A stretch of DNA of 62,853 nucleotides, counting the filler, from Licmophora abbreviata (taxonomy: Eukaryota), in NCBI GenBank assembly GCA_900291995.1. It is 8 parts of 8 records of this genome, joined end to end, with 100 filler letters (N's around TTAATTAATTAA, not from the genome) between each part and the next. Parts side by side here need not be neighbours in the genome. Positions count along the whole stretch, not along the records: positions 1 to 9,997 come from OLMU01000082.1; positions 10,098 to 16,082 come from OLMU01000083.1; 6 more parts are not named here. One strand, 5' to 3'. Within the stretch, counting starts at the first letter, position 1, and each line of letters opens with the position of its first letter. The position numbers and the translations under genes were made by a program. This document shows, piece after piece, positions 1-45,733 of the stretch. The notes beneath the pieces are model-generated. The model made no database searches and had not been told where the DNA came from. It saw only the letters and a program-made list of their open reading frames with translations.

Positions 1-8
1 CAACTCAC

Positions 9-1734
9 CTCCTTGAGAAAGCTTAAAGATGTTCTTCTTTCGATCAATAATCTGGAGGTTGCCATCCATTGTCCACAGCCCAATATCTCCACTATGCAAC
101 CAACCCTCGTCGTCCACTGCATCCTTCGTCTGCTCCTCCTCCTTGTAATACCCTTTGAACACGTTCGGTCCACGAACCCAAATTTCTCCTCTTCCCTGAC
201 AGGGTTGTCCACGATGATCCGTGTCATTATGAGAGTATCCCATCTCCGGAACATCCACCAACACGATCTCTGTTGCTCCGGTCGGTCCTCCGACATGACC
301 AACCGTCCCCAGGTCGTCAGGATGCCCGATCGTGGCAGCGGCAGCGCCTTCGGTTTGTCCGTAGCCTTCCACCACACCGATTCCCAGCAGACAACGAAAA
401 AACACCATGACATTTTCACTCAACGGCGCTGACCCGCTCACCATGAAGCGGATGTGGTCCATACCGAGCGCCTTTTTGATCTTGTTGAAAATCAGACGAT
501 CGTACAAGGCGTGATGCAGCTTGCCTTGCTTCAAATTCTTACTCTTGGCCGCAAGAGCTGCATCAAACAACTTTTTCTTGGCCCCACCTGCTGCCGCAAT
601 GCCGTTGACAATCTTGTCGTATATCTTGTTCAACACCCGCGGCGCGACGGGCAAGACGGTTGGACGACACGCCTGCAAATCTTCGATCAAATACAAGGGA
701 TCGCCTCTATAAAAGGCAACTGATCCACCTCTCATGAGAATACTGGACAAAACGGCACGCTCAAAGATGTGCGCCAGCGGCAAGTAGCTCAAATGACGAT
801 CGTACATCTGGGCCGCAAAGGCCGCCTTGTCGATTCCCGCAACAGCCGACATGAGATTTTCGTGCGTCAAGAGCGCTCCCTTGGGAGTTCCCGTGGTGCC
901 GGACGTATAGCAAAAGGTCGCCACATCAGCACCTGAAGGAGGACTGTGCGTGTGTCCTTGTGTCGCAATCAACTGTGCTCCCATGGCTTCCACCTTGGCA
1001 AAGGACACGAGCGTGAGCGAGGCGGCCTCTGCCATTTCGGCGGCGGACGGTACAATTCCATCGACGAGAATGACATGGGTGAACCGATCGCACAGTCCAC
1101 TTCGTTTCGCCGCGCAGACAGTCTCTATCTCCTGTCGGGTGCAGACGACGGACTTGGCAGAGGTTTGTGTAAGGATGAACTGCACCGTTTCGGGGCCGAG
1201 GGTGTCATAAAAGGGAGCTGTACAGCCACCCAGGGCGTAGACAGCGTATTCGCTCAACACCCACTCGACGCAATTTTTCATATACAGTGCAAGCTGGAAA
1301 CGAAGCGGATACGGTAGATACGATGAGAGCTTTGTCCGGGTGAAAACGAGAAGTGCCGACGTGTGAAACATAAATACCATATGTTTCAACATTATGAAAC
1401 TTACCACCATGAGTCCATCGTCATTCGGCTCCACCAACTTCATTCGCTCCAGTCCCGCTGCAAATGCATCGATACGAGCCAAGCACTCCGAGTAGGACGA
1501 GTAGATGAATGGCGTTGGAAATCCATTGGAGCTAACCGCACGGTAGCCAAAGCATGGTCCCAGTGGATTGAGATGACAGCCTCGTCTAAAGCCTTCGTGC
1601 AGAGTGCGACATCCATCCACTCCGAGTTCTGGGTGCAACAATGGGTCGCCAGCGCGACGAATATTGCCGCGACTGGCAGTGGAGGTGTGAGGGACTTCCG
1701 TCGAGGACATGAGATCCGATGCTTGTTTCGTCAT
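9..1734 (-). CDS. LACS: Long-chain acyl-CoA synthetase (AMP-binding), 5' part; 3' end beyond window start
   Basis: Not in the ORF track; read manually on minus. ATG 1734 MTKQASDL..., intron ~1404-1294, LALYMKNCVEW, AMP-binding motif FCYTSGTTGTPKGALLTHEN (~860-915), YLPLAHIFER, EGYGQTE; donor GTGAGT at 8-3. Confidence 0.92.
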
Positions 1735-4631: not shown

Positions 4632-6162
4632 TTACTTCATCGGCTGACCGTGCAGTCGAAATCGGTACAAGCAGGTGTAGTCTTCGTTTCCCCAGTTGTC
4701 CAGCACTTCCAGAGAGACGGCTCCCACGACTCCATCTTTGTCTTTCTTCCTACTTTGATGTCCAAGCACGGCTGCCACGTCTTGGGAAGGATCGTCGCAC
4801 GAGAGCTCTGGCTCGGAACACGATCCTGGCCCTCCGGTATCATCTCCTTCGGGCGGAAGCGCAAAGGTCTGTGTGCTGCTGGGGGCGTGTATATCGTACG
4901 TGACGGTCCCCAAGTCACGCCACTTGTTCGTGTCAAAGCCCATGCCCATGCACCCATCTTCACAGGGACGATAACCCACGACGCGAATCGTCTTGGGGGC
5001 GCTGCTGCGATCCTCAACCAGCAACGACGATACGTGTTCGATAGTTATCGATTCGGCCTGAAGGGGATACTTCAATCGAAGTGTGACTTGACCATTCTTT
5101 CCTTGCATAGGCCAACAAGCCCCCGGATGAATGTTGGATTCGAGAATGGCTTCGGGGGGAAGCGTGATGCCACCCTTGAGTCCCTGTTGCGAGAGTTAAA
5201 GTCAGTCAATCTGTTAGCAATAGCAGCAGAAAAATCCGAGCGACAGTGCATATCGCGAAAACGTTACGTACTAGCGTATGTCGCACACTCGATGGAATCC
5301 CGACGTTCCAATCCTCCCAGCCCGACGGGAGGAGCAGTTCCAAATCTTCGGGGATGTATCGTCTCCACCAAACGGCACCTAGCAACGTTTCTGGCTTCGG
5401 CGGCGGCACATACGTCGGGGTCGTCATTTCGTACACAACCGACGCCCCCTTCAGATAGTCGGTTCGTTCGATCTCACTGCTTTCCAGCAATGATGACTGC
5501 ACCACGCGAGCAGCGTCCAAAGGTGTTACGCAACTTCCCGATGCGTGCGTCGCACGGTAACTTGCCACTTCTTCTCGTACTACCTCTTGCACCCACTCGT
5601 TCAACTGCGACTCGCTTTCTTCCAATAGAACGTCTGGATTTAAGACGCTTTCCAACTGTCGCAGCGAAACAAACTGGCTCATATCCATCTCTCCCTCTGA
5701 TGCGACATACTGATCAGTGTCCTTCTCGGCGGCCACTTGAATCTCTTTTTGTACAGTATCGTTCAGTCTGGACGCTAGTCGATCCAGCTGTAACACATTG
5801 ATTTGTCGAATCATTTCATCCACTTTTGCGGTCCTCTCCCGCAATTCCGCCTCTCGTCGTTGCATGGCACTTATGCGCTCCGTAAGCGTTGCAATCTGCC
5901 CCGAGAGCTTCTCAAACTCTTGGTGGTGTCCAGAATACGATTGAATCGTTCGTTCCGCCATGTCCAAAAGTGCTAGAAGTTTATTCTCACCGACCATTCC
6001 TTCTTCTACTTGAGATGATTCTTCATCGAATAGAGCCGCCGCATCATCGTCGTGTTGGTTCTGCTCGAATGCTGCTGCATCTGCCGTCTCTGACTCTTCC
6101 GCATAACAATAACAAACAACGCACCAGCACAATAGCAAGAGATCAGGCAATGTGATCCGCAT
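4632..6162 (-). CDS. C-terminal SUN-domain protein with N-terminal hydrophobic leader and coiled coil, 2 exons (intron 5271-5184)
   Basis: PGACWPMQG, ITIEHV, SSAPK, NWGNEDYTCLYRFRLHG are SUN (Sad1/UNC-84) motifs; heptad region ~5780-5980. Confidence 0.88.
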
Positions 6163-6449
6163 GACGTCGTTCAAAAGGCCGAGTCAATCAGAGCAACAGA
6201 ACCCAGCCAATGTCGATTGAGCTGCCGTATTGCATCCCATGGCGTTCTCAGCACTTCAGTTCATCATCACAGTTCGTAGCGCCGCGCGTAGACTCAGACT
6301 CGACTCGCTCATCTTTCCCAAAGGAGCGGGGCTGACACGGGAGCCCGACAGACCCATTTTTGAAGTCGTTTTGGCGCGCCACACTTCGCCAAAAATCTGG
6401 CGAAACCAGCTCCTTTGGTGTTTCTCTACTTTCGAATCGAGACAATCCC

Positions 6450-7061
6450 ATGAAGTTCTTTGAGTACACGAGAGATATAGAGCCCGCAACCGCTGGGTAT
6501 GTCGAGCATAGCGCAACTCCTTCGGAAAAGAAAGATGGTATCTTTCAAAACCTTGATCCTTCGAATCCTCATCCCATGCCCGAGCTCACATGTCATGAGC
6601 AGAGAGTCCTCGCTTCTCTGAAACGAATCCACTTCTGGATGGATGACAGCATCCAATTGCCGTGCTGCTCACGAAGAGTTGGCATCGATCCGATCATCGG
6701 CTTGGTGCCTTTCGTTGGCGACTTTGGATCGGCATTGATTAGTCTCTATTTCGTCGCACGCGCGGCCCCAGTGACAAGCCGATACACGGTGGCACGTATG
6801 CTTGTCAATGTTTGGATCGATGCAGTAGTAGGTGTAGTGCCCCTGGCCGGTGATATTTTTGATGTGGGCTGGAAAGCTAATCAGCGGAACCTGGCGATTG
6901 TGGAGGATAACTTCAAAGTTGGCTTCGACGAGAGAAGCATTGCGGATCGAAAGTGGCTGATTACGATTGTTTTGGGTTTCATTTTGTTCTGCGCTTTCTC
7001 AACAGTGACGACACTCATCGTTGTCGTGCTCTTGATTCTTTATCTGACTGGAAACCTGTGA
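6450..7061 (+). CDS. DUF4112 family membrane protein
   Basis: MDDSIQLP..RVGIDPIIGLVPFVGD and RMLVNVWIDAVVGVVPLAGDIFDVGWKANQRN match the DUF4112 pattern; C-terminal TM. Confidence 0.85.
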   Translation: MKFFEYTRDIEPATAGYVEHSATPSEKKDGIFQNLDPSNPHPMPELTCHEQRVLASLKRIHFWMDDSIQLPCCSRRVGIDPIIGLVPFVGDFGSALISLYFVARAAPVTSRYTVARMLVNVWIDAVVGVVPLAGDIFDVGWKANQRNLAIVEDNFKVGFDERSIADRKWLITIVLGFILFCAFSTVTTLIVVVLLILYLTGNL

Positions 7062-7238: not shown

Positions 7239-10200
7239 CTAATCCAGGAGACCGGCAAAGGGATTCACTGCAAAGGTACAGCCAGCGTGACGTATAGCGT
7301 CCATGGCAATACGTGCACGCTCCTGCTGCCGAGCGGCCTCAATGTATCGTCGATCGGCAGCGCGATCGCGCGTATCTCGACTCTGTTGGGCAAGGCGGCG
7401 CCCCGCTTCGCGACGCTCCCAGTCTGCGTGCCGTCGCTTCTCCTTGGCGCGAAAAGCAAGCGAGAGTCTTCGGCGTTCCTTGCAGTCCTTCAGATAGTCT
7501 TCCACATCTCCCCGTGCTGCATCTTCTAGCTTGAGATTCTCTTGCTCAATCTGGTATGATTCTTGGTGCCGTTCTTCAGCCTCTAGCCGCTGAATGTTTG
7601 CTTCCTTTCTTCGGAAAAGGAGGGAGGCTCGATCCCGCGCTGCATTTTCAGCCTTGTACTGCGACACATCGCGGCGACCTGGTGAAAGCGATAAACAACA
7701 GAAACACGAGCGAGTCAGAGACGCCCCTCCTCGATACAGCAATTGTCATGCGTCCACCCAGAGACTTACATGCTGCTTGAAGTGCTTCCTCGGCATGAGC
7801 TTCCTGAACAAATTGTTGATATTTTCCCTCCTCAAGTTCTCGGTGAAGCCTTCCTTCCTGGTTCCGAAATGCGAACGACTGGCGTCGCTCCGACTCGAGA
7901 TCCGCAAGATAGGCTTTCGCGTCCTCCTCTCCGGCCCATTTGAGCATGTATGACTCCGTTTCTTGCTCCTTGGCGATGGATCGTAGTTCTTCCATGACCT
8001 TCTGGTGCTTCGCCTTTTCCTCGTTACGAAACTTAAAGCTCTCTCGTCGCTCCCGTTCCAACTGCTTGCGATGCTTGTTAGCATCTCGCTCGCCAGCCCA
8101 CTTGAGTTCGTAGCTATCGTGTTCCGCGAGTAGCTCTGTGGACCGTTGCTGATCCGACTCTACGCGTTGCCTTCGACCTTCCTTGTTTCGGAAAGCAAAA
8201 CTATCGCGACGCTCCTTCTCCATTTGCTCTCGGTATGCATCCGCGTCACGCTCACCAGCCCACTTTAACTCAAAGCTCTCATGGTCATCCTGTTGTCCCT
8301 GGGACCTTTCCATTTCCGCGTTGAGTCGCTGTTGGTGCCCTTCCTCGTTGCGAAGGGCATAGCTGTTGCGCCGTTCCTCTGCAATCTGCTTCCGGTATGC
8401 GTCGGCGTCGCGCTCGCCAGCCATCCGTAGCTCAAAGCTCTCGTGCTCCGCCTGAAAATTTCCGGTCCGTTGCCGCTCGGCTTCCTGTCGTTGACGATGC
8501 CCTTCCTCATTGCGAAAGGCGAAGCTGTCACGGCGTTCTTGTTCCATCTGCTTTTGGTATGCATCTGCATCGCGTTCGCCAGCCCATTTCAACTCGTAGC
8601 TCGCATGCTCATCGTGTCGGCTTTGAAATCGTTGGCCTTCAGCTTCTTGTCGTTGTCGATGGCCTTCCCTATTTCGAAATGCGTAGCTGTCACGACGCTC
8701 CTGCGACAACTTCTCTTTGTAGGCGTCCGCATCACGCTCGCCTTCCATTCTTAGCTCAAAACTCTGATGATCCGTCTGGAGTTGTTCCAATCGCTGGAGA
8801 TCTGCTTCTTCACGCTGTCGATGTCCTTCCTTGTTGCGAAACGCAAAACTGTCCCGGCGATCCTGATCCATGGCTGTTCGGTATGCATCGGCATCACGCT
8901 CGCCGGCCCATTTCAACTCGTAGCTCGAGTGCTCCGCGCTTTGTTCATCCGATCTCTGCATTTCGGCTTCCTGTCGTTGCTGCCGCCCCTCCAAGTTCCT
9001 GAACGCAAAACTGTCACGTCGTTGATCTGCGACTTTCTTGCGGTAGTTGTCAGCGTCCCGTTCACCCGCAAATTTCAGTTCAAAGCTGGTGTGCTCGGTC
9101 ATCCGTTCGTTCTCTGCCTGGAGCGCCTTTTCTTGGCGTTGCCTGTGGCCTTCCCGATTCCGGAACGCAAAGCTGTTTCGTCGCGCTTCCGCCATATCTT
9201 TTTTATACCCGTCTGCGTCGCGCTCACCCTCCATCTTAAGCCCAAAGCTACGATGCTCCTCGTCAAGACGCACTGCTTCCATTTTGGCATGAAGTTCCCT
9301 GATACGACGCGCGTCGCCATTACGGAACTGAAAACTCTTTCGGCGCTGTTCGGCAAGGTTTCGCTTCGATGTTCGCCACGCTAAGCTGCTCAGATGCCGC
9401 TCCTCCATTAGCATCTGATCTTCCTCAATACGAGCAAGACGCAGTCGAGCCTCGCCCTCACGATTGTTCTGCCTGATTTTTCCACGCTCCTTGACAGAAT
9501 GCCGCCGCTTGCGATCTCGTTCTTCCTTCAGCGTTCGTTGATGTTGACGATACACTTCTGACTTGAATTGAGATTCCTGGTCGACCGCACTAATATGATT
9601 CATGCGCTCTTGCGCCCTCCGCTGCGCCTTCGCCTGAACGACCTTGGACGACAGCTGTCTCTGCAACGCAAGCAACTCACGACGGTTCTTCTCTGCTTCT
9701 GCGTAGAACTCTTTCGCCTCTTCTTTCTCCTCACGCCATTGATCCCGTAGCATGGCTGTCTCCTTGGCACGCTCCTCATAGTTCTCTGACTTGGCACGAC
9801 GGACTGCGTTGAGACTCTGATTGACGCTGGTGGTGGCAGTGTTGATTGCCTCCTGCGTCTTCTTGGCCAAATCACGGCGCTTGGGAGAACGCGACTTCTT
9901 CTTGCGAAGATTGCGCAACTCTTTCTTCTGACGATCCGTATGGCTCTCCGTGCGAGTTGTTTTCTTGGAAGCGTCGTCGTTGGCTGTGGAAGCGAGCNNN
10001 NNNNNNNNNNNNNNNNNNNNNNNNNNNNNNNNNNNNNNNNNTTAATTAATTAANNNNNNNNNNNNNNNNNNNNNNNNNNNNNNNNNNNNNNNNNNNNTTG
10101 TACTCGAAGAAGCGTTCTCCTTGTCATTGTCGTAGTCGCGTTCGGATTGCTGATCAAAAAAGATGCTCTTGGACGGCGAGGAAGCAGAATCCTCCATCTG

Positions 10201-10362
10201 ACGAATACCGCGTTCCATACGATTCTTGCGAGGGGAGGGGGAATACGACAGACTGTTGCTTCCGACGGAGTGCGTGTCGACGGGGGTCTCGTCGACGACG
10301 ACGTTCCCAAAGACTCTGCGAGCCCGAGTCTTGCCGACTGACTCGGGTGGGACGTGTGACAT
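7239..10362 (-). CDS. Large charged helical protein with ~13 tandem 54-aa repeats; N-terminal part probably lies across the 9998-10097 gap; one intron ~7769-7678
   Basis: 756-aa ORF 7648-9918 plus spliced 3' exon to 7239. The ORF from ATG 10362 (MSHVPPES...) runs into the gap on the same strand, and the frame is open from the gap edge. Confidence 0.85.
7887..9507 (-). repeat. 162-bp (54-aa) coding tandem repeat
   Basis: RRxS(F/Y)xFRN units start at 9507, 9345 ... 7887, exactly 162 nt apart; two further degenerate units lie in the last exon. Confidence 0.95.
9998..10097. other. Assembly gap spacer N44-TTAATTAATTAA-N44 (also 16083-16182, 17851-17950, 20613-20712, 24235-24334, 26460-26559, 43539-43638)
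   Basis: Seven identical 100-bp spacers with a six-frame-stop linker; artificial. Confidence 0.98.
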
Positions 10363-11121: not shown

Positions 11122-13944
11122 ATGATGAGTCCTCCGTCGCAGTCGGGAGCTGTTGATTCATCCTCTCCGCCGTCGAAAGGCTCTGGCCAAGCAGATCGCT
11201 ACGTGGACAAGACTGCTTCGGAGCAAATCATGGGCTCGCTGGAAAGAGCACTTGAGGGTGTGAACATCCACGCAAGCGAGTATCAGGTTAACTCAAACTA
11301 TCCGATCGGCTCCAGTGAACACGGCAGTACCACTTCGAATCCCACCGAAAAGGTGAACCCCACAGAACTTGCTGGGACCTCTCCATGGGGGTCATCCTTC
11401 CCATCGGGTGGTTCGGCACTGGGAGGATTTTCCGATTCGAATGGCTTGCAGGGAATGGTCGGAACGGCTAACTCGGAACCGAGCGTTGTCAAGCAGGGGT
11501 CGTCTTTACTGACGGGGTCATCGGCCCCCATTTCCATTCGTGAAGAGCGCCAACCAGGCAACAACGATCGGAATGGCTTGTTTGGGATGGCAGAGAAGCT
11601 GGCCAAAGAACCCCTCTCGCCTGTTCGGAAGGAAAGTCTTGAACTTTTCCTCTCGCAAAGTCCATCCAAGACTCTTGGAGAGGACTTTTTGAAGCTGCGG
11701 GACCCGATTGCCTCCAAGACTGCGGACGGAAAGCCCATTAGCCGATCGGGAAGCGTCCTTAGTCTGGAAGAAGTCGGACGAGCTCCTGGTCCTATTCGTC
11801 GGAAAAGTGATTCACCATCTGTTTCCGTAACGGGAACTTCGGCCTCGAGTCGTTCAGGTTCACCTTTTGCGACAAACGAGACGAACGATGCACGTCGGAC
11901 GATTCAGGCCTTTCACGGGAATGACCTCGCGGGTGGTGCGCGGGCGTTTGTTCCTCAACAGGCCCCTGGCTTGACCATGAGCCATGGTGTCGCTCATCCT
12001 CAGCTAAGCACGTTCGAATTGCAGGGGCTCCAGACTCCTCGGCTGGGAGGTGGCGATATGAATGGGCAACCGCAGAAGAATGGCTATGGAAACGTGTACG
12101 CTCCTTCGATGGACGCTGTCCAGCTGACGCAGGACCAGCAGTTCCAGCAGCAACAAGCTTCCGCTAGTTCTACTCAGGTACTCTACATGGCCGTCCCGAC
12201 TCCGGATGGGCGTGGGCAGATGCTGCAGCCAGTCCAGCTTGCTCAGCTGCCGGGCCAACCGTCGCCTACGTTTGTGCTGCCTCCACAGTCTGGAGGAGCG
12301 CAACCTTCTTCCAAAGCATCGAAGTCTCCTCATCAGCAAAACGTTATGCTGGGTACACTTCCGTCGCATGGGCTACAAGGAACATCGACCCTGGACGGGA
12401 TGACTCCGACCGGAAGCCGGAATCGCGGCTCGAACAGCTGGTCACCGCAGTACCCCCAGAATACATACGACAGTGGCAGCCAATACTCGGCTCGCGGGGG
12501 CGACGACGACTACGGTTCGCGCAGTCAAAATGGTAGACCTGCCCAGGGCAATGGGGACGCGCTGTCCTCCATCTACTCGGCTCCGCAGCGTCCCGCTCTT
12601 GACGAGCTGCTGGGCAATGTCCGTCGTTTGTCTCGTGACCAAGTCGGATGCCGCTTATTGCAGCAGGCCTTGGACGAGGAAGGACCTCAGGCTGCGACAC
12701 TCATTCTCAATGAAGGATTGTCGTTTTGGGGTGAAGCCATGGTGGATCCATTCGGTAACTATCTGTTCCAGAAGATTCTTGAGAAGATTACTGCCGAAGA
12801 GCGCGTCATGCTCGTCAAGAGCGTCAGTGCCCGCCTGGTTAATGCCAGTTTGAACCTTCACGGAACGAGAAGCGTGCAAAAAGTCGTCGAGCTCTGCGCC
12901 ATGGACGAAAGAAGCAAGCTGCCGAACGCGACGGAGGGAACAGCGGCAGATGTGCTGACCCGATCATTGGAACCGGCGGCTGCTCGTCTATGCATTGACA
13001 GCCACGGCAACCATGTCATTCAGCGTATCCTTCTCAAGCTGAGCCACACGCACTCCATGTTTGTCTTTGACGCCGTTGCCGCCAGTGTTGGCGACGTTGC
13101 CCGTCATCGTCATGGCTGTTGTGTGATTCAGCGTTGCCTCGACTCTCCTCCAAGTGAAGCGCGATCGCACCTTGTCGGTCGCATCGTGGAGAAATCGTTG
13201 CAGCTAATGCAGGACGCCTACGGAAACTATGTTGTCCAGTACGTGCTCGATGTGTGCTCCGAGGAAGACGTCCAGGCAGTGTGCGAGAGCGTTGTCGGCA
13301 AGGTCTGTTTACTCGCTATTCAGAAGTTCAGTTCCAACGTGATGGAGAAGTGTTTGGAGCGTGGTAATGATCACTTGCGCGACATGTATCTACAAGAGCT
13401 TAGCGACGCCGACCGCATTCGAGAGCTCATGATGGATCCCTTTGGAAACTACGTTGTTCAACGGGCGCTCTCCGTCGCGTCGCACACCCAAGCCGTTCGG
13501 TTGGTCGAAGCCATGCGGCCTCATCTCCTGGCCTCGCAACCGAACCATCCCAATGGCCAGCGCAACGGCGGCATGCGTAACACCGCCGGTGGACGTCGCA
13601 TCATGTCCAAGATCTGCCGTCGCTTTCCCAACTTCACGTTAAGTCCTGAAGTTCCGCCTGAGCAGCTATACGCTCAGCATAAGGGTCACCGCACGCACCA
13701 CCAAGCTCCAGCCTCCGCATCATCATACCATCACGTGATGGCACCAGCCCACCACCATCAGCCAGTTCAGTACATGACTGAGCCGCATCGAGGAGGGCGC
13801 CGCCATGCAAACGCCGCTCCGCCTCAAGCACAGCAGCAGCAGCAACAACTGTACTACGATGCGGGTGCATTGCCTGGCTACTACGATCATACTATGCAGG
13901 CCGGGCAATACCAATCGGGCTACCACCCCCACGGCAATATGTGA
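11122..13944 (+). CDS. Pumilio/PUF RNA-binding protein
   Basis: Puf repeats DQVGCRLLQ, DPFGNYLFQ, NLHGTRSVQ, DSHGNHVIQ, HRHGCCVIQ, DAYGNYVVQ, QKFSSNVME, DPFGNYVVQ after a long low-complexity N-terminus. Confidence 0.95.
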   Translation: MMSPPSQSGAVDSSSPPSKGSGQADRYVDKTASEQIMGSLERALEGVNIHASEYQVNSNYPIGSSEHGSTTSNPTEKVNPTELAGTSPWGSSFPSGGSALGGFSDSNGLQGMVGTANSEPSVVKQGSSLLTGSSAPISIREERQPGNNDRNGLFGMAEKLAKEPLSPVRKESLELFLSQSPSKTLGEDFLKLRDPIASKTADGKPISRSGSVLSLEEVGRAPGPIRRKSDSPSVSVTGTSASSRSGSPFATNETNDARRTIQAFHGNDLAGGARAFVPQQAPGLTMSHGVAHPQLSTFELQGLQTPRLGGGDMNGQPQKNGYGNVYAPSMDAVQLTQDQQFQQQQASASSTQVLYMAVPTPDGRGQMLQPVQLAQLPGQPSPTFVLPPQSGGAQPSSKASKSPHQQNVMLGTLPSHGLQGTSTLDGMTPTGSRNRGSNSWSPQYPQNTYDSGSQYSARGGDDDYGSRSQNGRPAQGNGDALSSIYSAPQRPALDELLGNVRRLSRDQVGCRLLQQALDEEGPQAATLILNEGLSFWGEAMVDPFGNYLFQKILEKITAEERVMLVKSVSARLVNASLNLHGTRSVQKVVELCAMDERSKLPNATEGTAADVLTRSLEPAAARLCIDSHGNHVIQRILLKLSHTHSMFVFDAVAASVGDVARHRHGCCVIQRCLDSPPSEARSHLVGRIVEKSLQLMQDAYGNYVVQYVLDVCSEEDVQAVCESVVGKVCLLAIQKFSSNVMEKCLERGNDHLRDMYLQELSDADRIRELMMDPFGNYVVQRALSVASHTQAVRLVEAMRPHLLASQPNHPNGQRNGGMRNTAGGRRIMSKICRRFPNFTLSPEVPPEQLYAQHKGHRTHHQAPASASSYHHVMAPAHHHQPVQYMTEPHRGGRRHANAAPPQAQQQQQQLYYDAGALPGYYDHTMQAGQYQSGYHPHGNM

Positions 13945-14270: not shown

Positions 14271-16082
14271 CTACAGCGGACCAATGGCAAATCGTTCCTC
14301 GCCCCATAACTGATCGTCAGTATCTAGCCAGTCTTCCATAGTGACGAGCACTTCTTCGCAGTCGTTCTCTTCAACTTCGGGTGGAACGGCGCCGACCGCC
14401 TGTGCTGCAGCCGACGGCGCTGCCATGGCGACTTCCATGTCGTCCTTGAGCGCTGCGATGGCAATCTCTTCGATACGACGGCTGGCACTCGTGTGGTCAA
14501 TCGGGTCCGGTAACAAATCAAGCAGCTGCTGCGTGGACTTGGCCGCATGTTTCAGGCCACGGCCGGCGGTAAGCATGGTCACGGGTGCAACATTGGGGTG
14601 GCCCGGATGAGGGACGCGGTCAATACACAGTCGACCACCACGTCCCAGTCGAGGACGATGGCGAAATCGAAAAGTAGGAGTTGCATGCGTGTTAGTATAG
14701 CTCGGAATGAAGGGAACAGCCCTGTCGTACGACGTGGCGTACGTTTCACGCGTGTTGAGGGGATGCACGTAAAGCGGCGCCGGTTCGCCGTGGTTGCGTC
14801 CGGCCACGACGGCTGGAGTCGGTGCACCAGCCGTACCTTCGTCTCTTGTTGTCGACACATCCATGCCACCCATATGCGGCGGAAACTGATGGGATGGACG
14901 CAACTCGTCGTCTCCCTCTCCCCTGCGGCGCTTGCGAGAAAGTTTCGACCCCATCATGGACGTCTCGTCAAAGTAACTGGAAACGTCCAATAGACGTTCG
15001 ACTTGACCCTTGCTCAGTCTAGAGCTGACTCGAGGCAGTCCACTGGTATCGACTACATCATAGATGCGTTGTTCAAACCAGTCTGCTTGTAGTTGAATCA
15101 TACATCGGCTCAATTCTTCACGTCGCTTGGTAAGACCCAACAAGACTTGTACCTTCTGAAAGTCACTTTTGAGCTGTTTCATCTTGCGGTAGGCGTCCAT
15201 ATCATTCTGACGCTTCTTGCGCAGCTTGTACTTTTCCTTCTCGCGAGGTCGAAACACCAAGTGAGGATTTGTATCGTCCGTGGCCGTCACCGGCCAAAAT
15301 CGTCGTAGTAGCGGTCGCTTGAGCTTGGAACGTTTTTGTAGCCAGTATGTGTATACATCATTCAATACATGCTTGACCGTCACGTTACCGCCCGAAGCCC
15401 GGAAGGGAAAAAGGTGAAGGAGCTGCGGGACCTTCGATTTCAACATTCGTTCGGCCTGATCAGACGTCATGATGGCTTCAAAGCCGGTATCTTTCTCCAT
15501 CGTGTCCAACATGCGCTCGAGAAGTTCCAACGATAGCTGCGGTCGTTTGGTGCTATGAGTACTTGTTTCAGCATCTCCAGCATGCTTGCTCGCAGATCCA
15601 AACTTGGAATTGTTAATGAGCCAGACTTCGTCTTCGGCATCGGCGACATACTCCAATTCCGTTTCGACTTCTACCGGTGTTGGACGCTGGTAGCGCACGT
15701 AGGACGAGGGGGCATGGTACGTGTCCGGAATGTCCTTCTTGTACGTGTCGACAGTCAGAATTTGAGGAGTCGGAATATCGAGTTTTTGTTTTTGTTGAAG
15801 CATGGGAACCTGTTGAGTAGGGAAGGAGAACGGTGAATGTGTTGATCTTAGCAAGACGAGTGCAGTTAGAATAAGGCACAGGGTAATATACCGGAATCGA
15901 CTTACAGAGGTGCTCGCGGCATCTCCCAAATCGGAGATTGTTTTTCGCGTTCCCTCTTCATCGTCGTACGTGAGCGTATCGGAAGAGTCCCGAATGATGG
16001 CAACCTTTCTGTAGACATTGAGAGACGCCACAGCACCGCCGCTGCCGGTGCTGCTCTTCATCGTGCTGTTGGTCGCCGCTGC
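14271..16082 (-). CDS. EPL1: Enhancer of polycomb-like (NuA4/TIP60 subunit); intron ~15905-15812; 5' end may lie in the gap
   Basis: DIPTP, EYVADAEDEVWL, LERMLDTMEK, YTYWLQKR..LKRPLL, DTNPHLVFRPRE, RPRLGRGGRLCIDR are EPC/Epl1 motifs. Confidence 0.9.
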   Translation of the reverse strand, partial: AAATNSTMKSSTGSGGAVASLNVYRKVAIIRDSSDTLTYDDEEGTRKTISDLGDAASTSVSRFRYITLCLILTALVLLRSTHSPFSFPTQQVPMLQQKQKLDIPTPQILTVDTYKKDIPDTYHAPSSYVRYQRPTPVEVETELEYVADAEDEVWLINNSKFGSASKHAGDAETSTHSTKRPQLSLELLERMLDTMEKDTGFEAIMTSDQAERMLKSKVPQLLHLFPFRASGGNVTVKHVLNDVYTYWLQKRSKLKRPLLRRFWPVTATDDTNPHLVFRPREKEKYKLRKKRQNDMDAYRKMKQLKSDFQKVQVLLGLTKRREELSRCMIQLQADWFEQRIYDVVDTSGLPRVSSRLSKGQVERLLDVSSYFDETSMMGSKLSRKRRRGEGDDELRPSHQFPPHMGGMDVSTTRDEGTAGAPTPAVVAGRNHGEPAPLYVHPLNTRETYATSYDRAVPFIPSYTNTHATPTFRFRHRPRLGRGGRLCIDRVPHPGHPNVAPVTMLTAGRGLKHAAKSTQQLLDLLPDPIDHTSASRRIEEIAIAALKDDMEVAMAAPSAAAQAVGAVPPEVEENDCEEVLVTMEDWLDTDDQLWGEERFAIGPL

Positions 16083-16276
16083 NNNNNNNNNNNNNNNNNN
16101 NNNNNNNNNNNNNNNNNNNNNNNNNNTTAATTAATTAANNNNNNNNNNNNNNNNNNNNNNNNNNNNNNNNNNNNNNNNNNNNCGTCTGTGGAGCCGCCAT
16201 CCATTCCAAACTCCTCCGATCATGTCGCAGCGGTACTCACACTTTCACAAATCGACGTCACAGTGCGACACGCAAG

Positions 16277-17850: not shown

Positions 17851-17950
17851 NNNNNNNNNNNNNNNNNNNNNNNNNNNNNNNNNNNNNNNNNNNNTTAATT
17901 AATTAANNNNNNNNNNNNNNNNNNNNNNNNNNNNNNNNNNNNNNNNNNNN

Positions 17951-20430: not shown

Positions 20431-20712
20431 CAGTTTCGTCTCAGATCGTTTTGCAATCGAAAGTCAACATCAACGTGTGTTTGAGGCGGCACATAAGTGA
20501 ATTCTGACACTAAGACGTGGATGTGACATTCGGACATTTCGGTGCGTTGCTTGATTGATTGAGAGCAACCCGCTGTCACCCGCCAGGACGAAAATACCTT
20601 AGCTTGTACTCCNNNNNNNNNNNNNNNNNNNNNNNNNNNNNNNNNNNNNNNNNNNNTTAATTAATTAANNNNNNNNNNNNNNNNNNNNNNNNNNNNNNNN
20701 NNNNNNNNNNNN

Positions 20713-24234: not shown

Positions 24235-24800
24235 NNNNNNNNNNNNNNNNNNNNNNNNNNNNNNNNNNNNNNNNNNNNTTAATTAATTAANNNNNNNNNN
24301 NNNNNNNNNNNNNNNNNNNNNNNNNNNNNNNNNNCAATCATTCTCCTCGGCGACATCACCTGGGAGGTCCTGGTGCCACGTGACACGATTGGGCTTCGGA
24401 AGGCCATGAGCCTCATTTAACGTCGGCCAAAGGTCGGTCTGGTTCTGTTCCGTCATCATGGTGATAAACGAGCGTTGGCGTATTCTAAAAAATCGATCGT
24501 TCCTTCGTTCTCTTGCTCTCGTGAGTGACAGCGCCCATCAGCAGCGACATCACTTGATCATCATGTCGAATGTCGGGCGTCAATCGAGTGGCGACGATGG
24601 AAGCGAGAGAACAGGACAGATTGCGAGGAAATGTCACTGCCATAAGTACGAATGTGACAAAGTTCGCATTTTCAAATGGTATCTTCGTTAATCCTTCATG
24701 AAGGTTGCCAATGTCAAAGCCGCAACTTGCCATTTTGAATTCACTCCCGGATTGCACAGAACCATCGACTCCATCACACTCCGCCGCGCACCTCTTCACC

Positions 24801-26423: not shown

Positions 26424-26634
26424 GCGCTAGAGTTGCGCACTTCAGACTGCCGTTTTTGANNNNNNNNNNNNNNNNNNNNNNNNNNNNNNNNNNNNNNNNN
26501 NNNTTAATTAATTAANNNNNNNNNNNNNNNNNNNNNNNNNNNNNNNNNNNNNNNNNNNNGTTGTCGCGTAAAGTGGTTGTCCTCTTGGCACACACTGTCT
26601 CTCACTTTTCTTTCCACACCCTGTTCACTTAAAG

Positions 26635-28302
26635 ATGGAAGAGACAGCATCACAGCTACTTGGAGAAGAGATGGAATCAAGGGTTCCCAAGATGGAAGCC
26701 CCGATCGACCCGGATGGCAAGCGAGGGCTTAAGGTTCTTTTCTTGTCGTCGGACACGGGAGGTGGCCATCGCGCTAGTGCCGAGTCGCTCGGAAAGCAGT
26801 TTCAGCTTTTGTATCCTGGTACTACTTTTATTCTGCACGACATGCAGGAACACGAGGGCACGTATCCGTACTCGTCTCTCGTCAATACGTACAAGCATCT
26901 CAGTGCTCATCCGACCCAGTGGAAGATTGTCTACGGTGTGTCGAATTCTCGAGCCTTTGAAATGCTCGCAGACGTCCATCTCAAGCTTATGTGCGAACGC
27001 GCAGTGCGCAAACGAATCATGAGCTATGATCCAGACGTAGTCATCAGTGTGCATCCGCTCATGACCAATGTTCCTGTGCTTAGCTGTGCCAAAATTAGTC
27101 ACCAGACGGGACGGCATCTTCCCATGTTTACTGTTGTGACGGACTTGGGTTCCGCGCACTGTCTTTGGTTTGCAAACGGCGTTGAAAAGATGTTTGTGGG
27201 ATCCGAACAGATTCAGAAGCTGGCAAAAGAGCGAGGCAAGGTCCCAGACGAAAAACTCATCATGTCGGGACTGCCTATTCGACCCGACTTTGCCGTCCAA
27301 GCAGACCTACTGGGAGATCGCATGTCGCCAGAGGGCGTCGAGTATCAGAGGAAAGTAAGATCTGACTTGGAGTTGCCCCATGTTGACCGAGCAACGTTAC
27401 TGGTCATGGGAGGAGGCGAAGGGGTTGGCTCCTTGTCGTCGATTGTGAACTCTCTCTACGTCGAACTTGTCGTTCAAGGCATTGACGCACTCGTATTAGT
27501 TGTGTGTGGACGAAATGAGAAATTGAGAAAGTCACTGGACGAGCGCGACTGGGATGAAGTGATGCATCTTCACTTTCTCGCTAAGGAGAATCGTCTTCAG
27601 AGTATGTCTGTGTGCGGCAGCGAGAGCTTTGCCGGGACTGCCGGATGCATGGAGGAGAGTCTTGTCACGAAGCAGATTCGAAAGATTCTAAGTACGGGAA
27701 GTCTCGAAAGTCCAGTGAGTAGTCTGCCGCCGCCGACGACAGCGAACGTGATGGCGTCAACACAAAATTTTGCCAAGCCGCCTCGTCCGCCTGGAGTGGA
27801 GTCCGCACCAAGATCAGGGTCGCCTGCGGAAACGGAAGATTATGGAGCGTCGACGTTTACGTTTGACGGGTCGGTTCCAAGCCCCCCGAAGGAAGGAGAG
27901 GTGTCTGTAGTCGGCCTCGGCTTTGTTACGAGAATGGCGGAATACATGGTCGCTGCCGATATTCTAGTATCAAAGGCTGGACCTGGAACAATCTCAGAGG
28001 CAGCGGCTGTGTCGTTGCCAGTCATGTTGACGAGCTACCTTCCAGGACAGGAAGAAGGAAATGTAGATTATGTCATTGACGGAGGGTTTGGAGCCTTCTG
28101 CAGTGACTCGGACCCGGCTGGTATTGCGGAGGAGGTGTCATCGTGGCTGAAAGATGGCGACAAGATGGAATTGTTGAGCAAGGCTGCGAAGGCGAAGGGA
28201 GCTCCACACGCCGCGCGAGATATTGCAAAATCTATCGGCGACAGTACACTGAAATGGCGGGAACTCAACGAGGAGCGACAAGCGCTTCGCAACACATCGT
28301 AG
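26635..28302 (+). CDS. MGD: Monogalactosyldiacylglycerol synthase (GT28); 5' exon possibly in gap
   Basis: SDTGGGHRASA, VISVHPLM, TVVTDL, MGGGEG, VCGRN, KAGPGTISEA, PGQEEGNV. Confidence 0.95.
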   Translation: MEETASQLLGEEMESRVPKMEAPIDPDGKRGLKVLFLSSDTGGGHRASAESLGKQFQLLYPGTTFILHDMQEHEGTYPYSSLVNTYKHLSAHPTQWKIVYGVSNSRAFEMLADVHLKLMCERAVRKRIMSYDPDVVISVHPLMTNVPVLSCAKISHQTGRHLPMFTVVTDLGSAHCLWFANGVEKMFVGSEQIQKLAKERGKVPDEKLIMSGLPIRPDFAVQADLLGDRMSPEGVEYQRKVRSDLELPHVDRATLLVMGGGEGVGSLSSIVNSLYVELVVQGIDALVLVVCGRNEKLRKSLDERDWDEVMHLHFLAKENRLQSMSVCGSESFAGTAGCMEESLVTKQIRKILSTGSLESPVSSLPPPTTANVMASTQNFAKPPRPPGVESAPRSGSPAETEDYGASTFTFDGSVPSPPKEGEVSVVGLGFVTRMAEYMVAADILVSKAGPGTISEAAAVSLPVMLTSYLPGQEEGNVDYVIDGGFGAFCSDSDPAGIAEEVSSWLKDGDKMELLSKAAKAKGAPHAARDIAKSIGDSTLKWRELNEERQALRNTS

Positions 28303-37846: not shown

Positions 37847-40177
37847 TTACACCTCGACCCCCATGATTTTTGCCACCTGTGGCATGTCCTTGTCGCCGCG
37901 GCCACTCATGTTGATCACCAAATCCTTGCCCTTTCCAAGCTTCTTCGCAAGTTTGACAGCGTAGTAGATGGCATGACTTGTCTCCAACGCAGGGATGATG
38001 CCTTCGTACTCGCACATGAGCTTGAAGCCCTCGAGAGCTTCATTGTCAGTGACGGCCTCGTATGTCGCCCGCTTTGTGTCCTTTAGATAGGCATGTTCCG
38101 GACCAACGCCAGGGTAGTCGAGTCCAGCAGAGATAGAGTGTGTGTTGAGTGTCTGTCCAGATTTCTCCTGAATGACGTACGTCAGAGCACCCTGAAGGAC
38201 GCCTGGAGTTCCTTTGGTCAAAGTAGCGCAGTGTTCTTCGTCCTTGTCTATGCCATATCCAGCGGCCTCCACACCATACAGAGCAACACCTTCGTCTTCC
38301 ATGAAAGGGTAGAATGCACCAATTGCATTGGAGCCACCGCCAACGCAAGCAACGACGGCATCAGGCAGCTTTCCCGTCTTGTCGAGCATCTGTTCCCGCA
38401 TCTCACGCCCCATGACACTTTGGAAGTCCCGCACGATCGTAGGGAACGGATGGGGACCGACGGCAGATCCGATGAGGTAGTGAGTATCGCGTACGTTCGT
38501 CACCCAGTCACGCATAGCTTCGTTGATGGCATCCTTGAGCGTACGTTGTCCATCCTGCACAGGCACAACCTTTGCTCCCAGAGTGTTCATTCGGAACACA
38601 TTCAACTTTTGTCGCTCGCAGTCAACTGCGCCCATGTATACGGTACAGTCGAGCCCAAGCATTGCACACACAGTCGCCGTCGCCACTCCGTGCTGCCCAG
38701 CTCCAGTTTCGGCAATGATACGTGGTTTTCCAATACGTTTGGCGAGCAAGGCCTGCCCGATTGCATTGTTAATTTTATGTGCTCCAGTGTGTGCAAGATC
38801 TTCTCGCTTCAACCAAATGTTGGCCCCACCAGCGTATTCGGTAAGCCGAGTGGCGAGATGAAGCGGTGTCGGGCCACCGACGAAATCCCGTCGGTATCGA
38901 TCGAGCTCCGCCAAAAAATCAGGGTCGTTCTTGATCTCATCGTACTTCTCCTCAATTTCTCCAAAGGCAACTGACAGTGTCTCCGGAATGTACTGACCAC
39001 CAAATTGACCGAAGCGGGTGCGCGCGCCATCCGCAGCCGATTTCTTGGGCACGTGCCCAAGTGCCGTCGCCTGGTTGCTGGCACTATCCGCCTGTTTCAC
39101 TCCCGAGACTAGGTGCGACACAATCTCACGCACAGCCGCAGCGCGCTCCTCAGTGGAAGCGTCCTCACCGGCTTTGTCCATCGCCTTGAGAATGGCGCTT
39201 CCAACGACAACACCATCACTGATATTAGCAACACCCTGAACCATGTCGGGATTGGAAATACCGAAACCGACGGCAAGGGGCAAGTCCGTCTTGGAACGAA
39301 CTCGAGAAATGAAGTCCTCCAAGTCTTCCGGAAGAGCATCTCGAGCACCGGTAACACCAGTCACAGAAACACAGTACAAGAAGGTCGAGGCCATGTCGGT
39401 CAAATAACCAATACGTTCATCACTGCTCGTCGGGGCCACCAAAGGAATATTCGACAAGCCATTCTCGATGCAAGCTTTGTTCAATGCGATTCCTTCCTCC
39501 GGTGGAAGATCGACAACAATGAATCCGTCGGCGCCCGCAGCCTTGGTTTCTTCACATAGCTGTTCGACGCCATACTGGAAAAAGGGATTATAGTACCCCA
39601 TAAGAACAACAGGTATAGTAAGGCCCATTTCACGAGCCTTCTTGACCATCTCCAGGCACTGAGGGATCTCAGACGTTCCACCTTTGATGGCCACTTGGTT
39701 GGTATGTTGAATGGTCGCTCCATCGGCCTGCGGATCCGTGTACGGGATACCCAACTCAATCACTGCCGCTCCACCCTCCTGCATGGCCAACAGAACAGCG
39801 GGAGTATCTAAAAAAAGTGAATACAGAAAGAGTCAGTTTCCTATGTCCACTTGGGTTCCTCATCGATGTAATTGTTCCGTTTCTCGATTCGTACCTTGAG
39901 CTGAGGGGTATCCAGCAGTGACGAACGTGATAAAAGCGGCTTCTCCCCGCTGCTTGGCAGCCTCAAAGGCATCCTCGATGCGTCCTCCGATTCCACGCTC
40001 CATATCTTCCACAGATTTTGGCGGCTGCACAGAGGCGACTTTCAAAGAAGTTGACGGTGACGACGAACGTGCCACACTGCGAACTCCAAATTTGGAAGAA
40101 AATGCACTAGTTGAAGGAAGCACGCCAGAAGAGCCCAAGCAAACAAGTAGGGTCAGCGCTGCACGGTACAGATACAT
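37847..40177 (-). CDS. trpAB: Plastid-targeted fused tryptophan synthase alpha+beta, 2 exons (intron ~39894-39809)
   Basis: Signal ...STSA-F; alpha [14 protein letters not shown]; beta [49 protein letters not shown]. Confidence 0.97.
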
Positions 40178-43335: not shown

Positions 43336-45324
<1,989 letters not shown>

Positions 45325-45733
45325 GGGCGCAGCAGCTCGTCTCCTTGCCTCCATCCACAGCAAAACAAACAGCCACTGATGCAAAGAACAAAAGTAATCC
45401 GCCAATGGCTGATGGAATGTGAAGAATGCCAACATCAACCGAAAAACTGATGGATCTCGCGAATTGCGCGCCCTTTTGGACAAGCGGCCAGGCCAAAGTG
45501 CGTCAGCGCCTTCCATTGTGCTTCCACCTGGCACTCAAGACGTGCACATCAATCACAGCCGGAATGAACGAATCTGCCCTCTATTTGGATTGGTGTTTCA
45601 CTCTGAGGTTGTCGCGGCATTCAACTTTTGCTCAGTGTGCTTACAGTTTGATCTCTTGTTGCTCGCATGCACCTGAAGCATCGACAGGAACTCGTCGTGT
45701 CAATTTGAAAAGGAAAAGCTATCACAGAACAGA

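Follow-up and report, generated by a model that had tools for sequence, protein, structure and literature searches.

A diatom protein family with a 54-residue helical repeat of almost invariant length, and its possible match to the microtubule lattice

The diatom Licmophora abbreviata carries a minus-strand gene, running from position 10362 to position 7239 of a 62,853-nucleotide (nt) window (the whole stretch of DNA analysed, filler included, from GenBank assembly GCA_900291995.1), whose visible product of at least 976 residues (88 + 742 + 1 + 145) contains an array of units that are each 54 amino acids (aa) long. The whole protein would be a rod of ~1000 residues, proline-free and nearly wholly alpha-helical, with this array as its core. 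Throughout a large family of relatives this length hardly ever varies, and such strictness suggests that the protein may run in register along a structure of regular spacing, for instance a microtubule. A helix with 3.6 residues per turn completes 15.0 turns in 54 residues, and at the textbook rise of 1.5 Å these cover 81 Å, or ~8.1 nm; given the predicted unbroken helix, the repeat length would equal the spacing of the tubulin dimer, for which measured values are 81.6-84.0 Å (PMC8144581). Among the explanations weighed below, a microtubule binder that is matched to the lattice and has an RRxS-hydrophobic phosphosite in every unit is ranked first, tentatively, as a good hypothesis that has survived the available tests.

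The repeat gene and its units

Within the minus-strand open reading frame (ORF) 9918..7648, RRxS[FY] motifs occur at residue offsets 191, 245 and so on to 677, spaced by exactly 54 aa (162 nt), and the motif-bearing units start at window positions 9345, 9183, 9021, 8859, 8697, 8535, 8373, 8211, 8049 and 7887. A hidden Markov model (HMM) of the unit, trained on nine units of this gene, was used to delimit the array. The parts of the gene, in the order of translation, are as follows.

10098..10362, minus strand: 5' coding part, in which an ATG at 10362-10360 opens a run of 88 codons that reaches a block of N
Within 10098..10362, minus strand: N-terminal motifs ARRVFG and SLxYSPSP, in agreement with the consensus of 72 homologues
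9998..10097, no strand: N block (44 N, TTAATTAATTAA, 44 N), which interrupts the gene
7770..9997, minus strand: main exon, comprising 742 codons (from 9996 on) and the opening base of a split codon (7770)
9346..9507, minus strand: unit 0, degenerate but in register; the HMM covers positions 1-10 only, E = 2
7888..9345, minus strand: nine canonical units, with starts from 9345 to 8049; HMM scores of 79-94 bits (these nine trained the HMM)
7635..7887, minus strand: unit 10, split by the intron into 7887-7770 and 7678-7635; HMM E 5e-8 for the exon part
7769-7679, minus strand: intron of 91 nt, GTAAGT ... CAG (GT..AG), whose removal joins two ORFs in frame
7311..7634, minus strand: units 11 and 12, diverged, in register, with starts at 7634 and 7472
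7239..7310, minus strand: C-terminal tail ending ...CTFAVNPFAGLLD, with a TAG stop at 7241-7239

The product of the main exon begins with a short disordered stretch, continues with a 170-aa helix that is not repeated and then enters the array. The reading frame is open on either side of the N block at 9998-10097, and TTAATTAATTAA at the centre of that block gives stops in all six frames; the block probably marks a join made in assembly or sequence that was masked, and the family consensus suggests that it hides few or no codons. Excision of the 91-nt intron restores the homologue consensus across the junction, and the C-terminal tail agrees with the family consensus CSFNPFxxxL. Because the 72-homologue consensus reproduces the N-terminal motifs, the junction sequence and the C-terminus, the gene model is supported by homology.

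The splice through unit 10 preserves both frame and register, and its junction agrees with the family consensus. Once the intron is excised, the units of the last exon fall into exact 54-aa register, with E-values for the unit HMM of 3.8e-5 (7634/7631) and 7e-4 (7472). Unit 0 is kept as a degenerate unit in the consensus of the 72 homologues. A first-pass annotation of this DNA had proposed about 13 repeats, 11 of them starting 162 nt apart from 9507 onwards. The count is borne out, with 13 in-register 54-aa units (10 clear, 2 further significant and 1 weak), and the starts from 9345 to 7887 are exact; the unit at 9507, although in register, is weak (E = 2). The same annotation described the array as proline-free, E/R/K/Q-rich and without an obvious heptad, and this also stands: the repeat region of 525 aa is without proline, has a charged fraction of 0.44, is rich in E, R and Q and shows no 3.5-residue hydrophobic periodicity. 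At the DNA level, Tandem Repeats Finder recovers just 2.8 copies at 70% match, i.e. the units are diverged, and the array is therefore not an artefact of recent DNA duplication.

Outside the repeats, the termini are conserved as well, as K-x-x-A-R-R-V-F-G and S-L-x-Y-S-P-S-P at the N-terminus (10098-10362) and as C-S-F-N-P-F-x-x-x-L at the C-terminus (7242-7310). S-L-x-Y-S-P-S-P presumably carries sites of the proline-directed kinase type, and the NPF of the C-terminal motif is one that we take to be an EH-domain-binding motif.

Constancy of the unit length across the family

Relatives of the protein were gathered by a word-indexed search, which gave 281, and by an exhaustive HMMER search of 1.84 billion representative proteins, which gave 230 at E <= 0.001. 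Among the best 120 of the 281, 488 of the 490 spacings measured between motifs are multiples of 54. The unit HMM was also run over 249 proteins, 234 of which had matches (2-14 per protein, fragments included); there, one unit follows the next at a multiple of 54 in 1107 of 1119 cases and at exactly 54 in 1074, and of the 988 matches that cover a full unit, 985 are free of indels. Persistence of the 54-aa period in homologues had been set beforehand as a test of the first-pass annotation, and these spacings uphold it.

A profile of 1184 distinct units shows strong conservation at about 14 positions of the unit (R1, R2, S4, [LF]5, R8, N9, R16, H31, S33, L36, K37, G40, D43 and Y47), and proline is practically missing from it. 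The conserved patch reads D43-[AV]-x-x-Y47 ... R1-R2-x-S4-[LF]5-A-F-R8-N9 ... R16, together with H31-E-S33-Y-E-L36-K-W-A-G40, and the residue at position 4 is S in 92% of units, with D in a further 5%. Positions 17-29, by contrast, hold only ~1 bit each, so that these 13 residues are free in sequence and fixed in length. Unit length is thus conserved in the free stretch too, and the firm inference is that selection acts on the residue count per unit rather than on the sequence. Successive conserved patches would then have to keep both their distance and their face constant, as a helix on a periodic lattice requires.

A constant unit length might also arise without any partner, if the array were a generic charged single-helix spacer whose unit length stays constant as a side effect of unequal crossing-over in register, indels being rare in long helices in general. 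The E/R/Q-rich, proline-free composition would suit a spacer, and so would the behaviour of the central units, which are closer to each other within a species than between species, i.e. homogenised, and which differ in number among species. However, homogenisation has not reached the first unit or the last canonical one (number nine in a comparison of nine); both are positional orthologues across diatoms, with 53-66% identity to the unit at the same position in Cyclotella, Cyclostephanos, Conticribra, Fistulifera and Mayamaea, and the period is therefore old and not merely a product of homogenisation. The same period is shared by a distant subfamily with 23-28% identity to the query, some 14 strongly conserved positions per unit are superfluous for a mere spacer and, as described below, salt bridges of the ER/K type are not enriched. 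The spacer explanation is thus given little probability.

In the distant subfamily, whose named members come from the transcriptome of a Durinskia dinotom and from the chrysophyte Paraphysomonas, 54 is the main spacing but is held less strictly: 118 of 157 spacings equal 54, and another 12 equal 108 or 162. A double unit of 104 residues, 4 residues (about one helical turn) short, is common to 16 of these proteins at the same place in the array (P0243, P0266-P0269 and 11 others), and it is the sole recurrent exception to the rule of 54.

Units 3-8 of the bolidophyte Triparma (P0062, P0075) have [EQ]-x-x-D-[YF] in place of R-R-x-S-[LF], as in E-A-A-D-Y-A-K-R-N. They retain H-E-S-Y-E-L...R-D-A-D-A-Y and the 54-residue period.

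The family is large, uncharacterised and, so far as names show, confined to diatoms and their close ochrophyte relatives, the named members overall being diatoms, Triparma, a dinotom and Paraphysomonas; all of these lineages presumably either make silica structures or host a diatom. Homologues are present in the raphid pennate diatoms Fistulifera solaris and Mayamaea pseudoterrestris. Raphid pennate diatoms are not known to have flagella; the occurrence of the family is therefore not tied to cilia or flagella, and the protein is not as such a ciliary inner protein, the class to which the first-pass annotation had likened it.

Predicted structure and composition

Based on an alignment of 73 sequences, the AlphaFold2 (AF2) model of the 742-aa stretch is nearly all helix (47-224, 229-561 and 584-741), with a mean predicted local distance difference test score (pLDDT) of 68.5 and two helix breaks that lie at differing repeat positions. 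A fragment of four units is modelled as one helix, from 2 to 215, with a mean pLDDT of 91.7, and neither the two conserved glycines nor the two aromatic motifs interrupt it. As far as these models go, they agree with the earlier proposal of a straight helix that lacks a compact fold.

Two other views of the unit were tried and rejected. The alternating aromatics (S-F-A-F and S-Y-E-L-K-W) and a strongest hydrophobic periodicity near 2.1 had prompted a beta/alpha reading, with short strands or a solenoid like that of leucine-rich repeats, which the predicted unbroken helix over four units (pLDDT 91.7) speaks against. The idea of two half-repeats, i.e. sites of ~27 residues for alpha- and beta-tubulin, is unsupported, as an hhalign comparison of the halves gave a probability of 0.4% with 1 aligned column; the information spectrum does have its peak at period 27.

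The 525-aa repeat region has no 3.5-residue hydrophobic periodicity (power 0.00, reached by 491 of 500 shuffles) and no significant 3.6-residue one (observed power reached by 89 of 500 shuffles), and a classical coiled coil is therefore unlikely. In the spectrum of the consensus unit, the term at 54/15 is likewise not a leading one. When the unit is drawn as a helical wheel with 100 degrees per residue, F5, Y34 and W38 fall on one face and F7, L36, Y47 and L51 on the opposite one; hydrophobics and aromatics on two opposite faces are as expected of a helix that lies in a groove. The net charge of the repeat region is -12 (109 K+R vs 121 D+E, pI 6.0), and the unit divides into a head that is basic (R1, R2, R8, R13, R14 and R16) and a body that is acidic. 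The composition does not make the region an ER/K single alpha-helix, in that pairs of opposite charge at i/i+4 amount to 0.095 per residue vs 0.095 +/- 0.011 in 1000 shuffles, at a charged fraction of 0.44.

The same features bear on a rather unlikely alternative, in which the protein forms a cytoskeletal or nucleoskeletal filament of its own. In such a self-assembling filament, rods would pack laterally with an axial stagger of 54 residues, and the basic block 1-16 would lie against the acidic remainder of a neighbour, in the manner of the charge periods of the myosin rod or of SF-assemblin; the lattice to which the unit length answers would then be the filament's own. The long unbroken predicted helix, the basic head and acidic body of each unit, and hydrophobics on two opposite faces that would allow contacts with two neighbours all accord with this, as does the want of extra i/i+4 salt bridges, given which a free helix probably requires a partner. 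Other self-assembling rods have strict periods as well (28 residues in the myosin rod, 29 in SF-assemblin and 51 in Scy). Yet those rods have a hydrophobic seam of 3.5-3.67 residues, which the diatom array lacks, and the charge spectrum computed from the consensus unit is not led by its 54-residue term, whose amplitude of 4.4 is exceeded by that at period 6.75 (6.2). Additionally, the Pfam and PDB sequence searches described below revealed no homology to a filament family. A homodimer prediction with two copies of residues 326-541 scored 0.00; made without controls, it gives no verdict and is counted neither for nor against.

Relation to known families and systems

In the searches made, neither sequence nor fold connected the protein to a described family. 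Pfam gave no family at E <= 1 for the window protein, including TPH (trichohyalin-plectin-homology), TPX2 / TPX2_importin and nebulin, and no real family for 68 homologues (13 searched at E <= 0.01 and 55 at E <= 0.001). The labels VbhA, PH_FT_C, Chromo_2 and Hormone_2 that Pfam attached to homologues were rejected as sums of weak repeat matches with no individually significant stretch, and the UniRef label 'trichohyalin-plectin-homology' on two or three homologues finds no backing in Pfam and looks compositional. There were 0 matches at E <= 1 among PDB sequences for a profile of 73 sequences, 0 matches at E <= 10 in the PDB for the 742-aa model by Foldseek, and no usable match in the ESM Atlas. 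The first-pass annotation would have been undermined by a match to a characterised non-cytoskeletal family, and none appeared in the Pfam, PDB sequence and Foldseek searches. Searches of the literature, supplementary tables excluded, turned up no account of the family or of any such 54-residue repeat. Those aimed at microtubule-associated repeat proteins or trichohyalin-like proteins of diatoms likewise yielded no long helix array with one unit per tubulin dimer.

Several known systems nevertheless offer partial likenesses. The microtubule-binding domain of MAP7, as resolved by cryo-electron microscopy, is a single alpha-helix of 53 residues that runs parallel to the axis over about one tubulin dimer, making contact in two segments and showing only weak order in the one between them (PMC8985661). 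The diatom unit resembles it in length and in layout, with two conserved clusters and a variable stretch of 13 residues. However, MAP7 has a single helix with arginine/lysine contacts, whereas the diatom protein is a tandem array and net acidic, and no sequence relation of the window protein to MAP7 was detected (Pfam, E <= 1). Nebulin repeats, of 31-38 aa, are matched to actin (5.5 nm), have a kink and a loop, and tolerate variation in length (10.1101/2021.10.06.463400). Both would be tandem arrays in which each helical repeat serves one subunit of a cytoskeletal polymer and the number of repeats depends on the species, and the core D-x-x-Y-K is the sole resemblance between the SDxxYK of nebulin and the diatom [RK]-D-[AV]-x-x-Y-[KR]; the diatom units differ in their 54 aa, their unbroken predicted helix, their almost invariant length and the lack of a Pfam nebulin match.

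SPM1 of Toxoplasma, a filamentous microtubule inner protein, has an internal repeat for each 8-nm dimer along one protofilament (PMC8144581). Its six short luminal repeats combine a short helix with extended chain (Mn motifs), whereas the diatom units are predicted to be fully helical, and the two have no sequence similarity. The C-terminus of the spindle protein TPX2 contains about nine helical repeats of ~50 aa with F-rich motifs (PMC5080731). Those repeats are half helix and half coil, carry small inserts and have been modelled as a flexible solenoid, unlike the diatom units, which are of exactly 54 aa without inserts; the Pfam TPX2 models have no match to the diatom protein. Long E/R/K/Q-rich helices are also a feature of TPH proteins, some of which (MNS1 and CFAP53 type) are filamentous ciliary inner proteins, but neither the window protein nor the 68 homologues have a Pfam TPH match.

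A further precedent, Sfi1, has a long single helix with repeated W-containing sites that bind one centrin per repeat, and its repeat length varies. By analogy, every unit of the diatom array could offer a site to a soluble partner, the whole being a periodic docking strip, whether of the Sfi1/centrin kind or as a multi-site substrate or scaffold of a kinase or phosphatase. The conserved aromatic and basic motifs S-Y-E-L-K-W-A-G and S-[LF]-A-F-R-N on a long exposed predicted helix, as well as an R-R-x-S-hydrophobic site in every unit, fit this proposal. It is nonetheless improbable: soluble partners that bind independently require no exact residue count between their sites, and the repeats of Sfi1 and nebulin do vary in length, whereas here even the unconserved stretch keeps its length. 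Nor did Pfam return a family of this kind at E <= 1.

A lattice-matched microtubule binder

For the tentatively favoured reading, binding to the microtubule lattice, the following course of events is proposed. The partner would be the alpha/beta-tubulin dimer along a microtubule protofilament, and successive patches would land on equivalent sites of it with ~8-nm spacing. The protein would lie along the microtubule with one unit per dimer, as a stabiliser, a spacer or a docking strip, and in L. abbreviata the array would span ~100 nm. What speaks for this reading is the old and nearly constant period, kept even by the variable stretch, the predicted continuous helix without a hydrophobic seam, and the MAP7 and SPM1 precedents. 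Phosphorylation of the R-R-x-S-hydrophobic site, which we take to fit the consensus of a basophilic kinase (Aurora, PKA or CaMK type), would offset the positive charge of the basic patch and so weaken binding. That the site in each unit acts as such a phospho-switch is plausible from the alignment, because position 4 is S in 92% and D in 5% of units, with D in the central units of Triparma; S/D exchange is typical of phosphosites.

A number of observations weigh against this reading. The repeat region is acidic (pI 6.0), unlike the lattice-binding domains of microtubule-associated proteins (MAPs), which are typically basic, and no relation in sequence, profile or fold to any family of MAPs or microtubule inner proteins was found. 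The central units of Triparma do without R1, R2 and S4, and the basic patch is to that extent dispensable; likewise, the 104-residue double units of the distant subfamily mean that the period can be broken. The central units are partly homogenised, and in-register unequal crossing-over could explain part of their constancy in length. Unit number varies between species, and the protein is thus not a ruler of fixed length. With respect to structure, AF2 tends to give long helices for charged chains of low complexity, and a free helix whose i/i+4 salt bridges are unenriched may be unstable alone. The 8-nm interpretation of the first-pass annotation has accordingly fared unevenly, being favoured by the length match and by the precedent of the 53-residue helix of MAP7 and disfavoured by the acidity of the array.

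A bolder form of the proposal can be framed, albeit as a doubtful one. The array, with one helical unit per tubulin dimer and with kinase sites serving as a multi-step release switch, would be the first fully helical tandem microtubule 'nebulin', a diatom/ochrophyte invention serving the unusually ordered microtubule arrays of these cells. The arrays served might be the central spindle or those that shape the silica-forming vesicles, and the link of the repeat protein to the diatom spindle in particular is pure conjecture.

Repeat proteins matched to a lattice have precedents on actin, in nebulin, and within the microtubule, where the repeats of SPM1 are short motifs; if the lattice reading is true, the family would join the nebulin/MAP7/SPM1 kind. 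To our knowledge, few of the diatom and ochrophyte proteins that order the paracrystalline spindle, or the cytoskeleton that shapes silica, have been identified. A residue count that hardly ever changes even where sequence is free offers a clean experimental handle, and should microtubule binding fail, the same constraint would still indicate a periodic assembly that is undescribed.

Other features of the window

Apart from the 322-aa ORF at 5206-6174, the neighbouring genes listed here are of an ordinary eukaryotic, plastid-bearing type and have no obvious connection to the repeat protein.

1-1734, minus strand: AMP-binding enzyme
5206-6174, minus strand: ORF of 322 aa directly downstream of the repeat gene, with a hydrophobic N-terminus and an acidic, helix-like middle
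6360-7061, plus strand: DUF4112
11122-13944, plus strand: Pumilio-repeat protein
14271-16061, minus strand: EPL1-like protein
26635-28302, plus strand: monogalactosyldiacylglycerol (MGDG) synthase
37847-39790, minus strand: fused tryptophan synthase alpha+beta
43900-45534, minus strand: class II tRNA synthetase with WHEP domain

The 322-aa ORF has no Pfam match at E <= 1e-4. The window also contains seven blocks of equal geometry (44 N, 12 bases, 44 N), at 9998-10097, 16083-16182, 17851-17950, 20613-20712, 24235-24334, 26460-26559 and 43539-43638; they look like contig-join linkers or masked stretches, and one of them falls within the repeat-protein gene.

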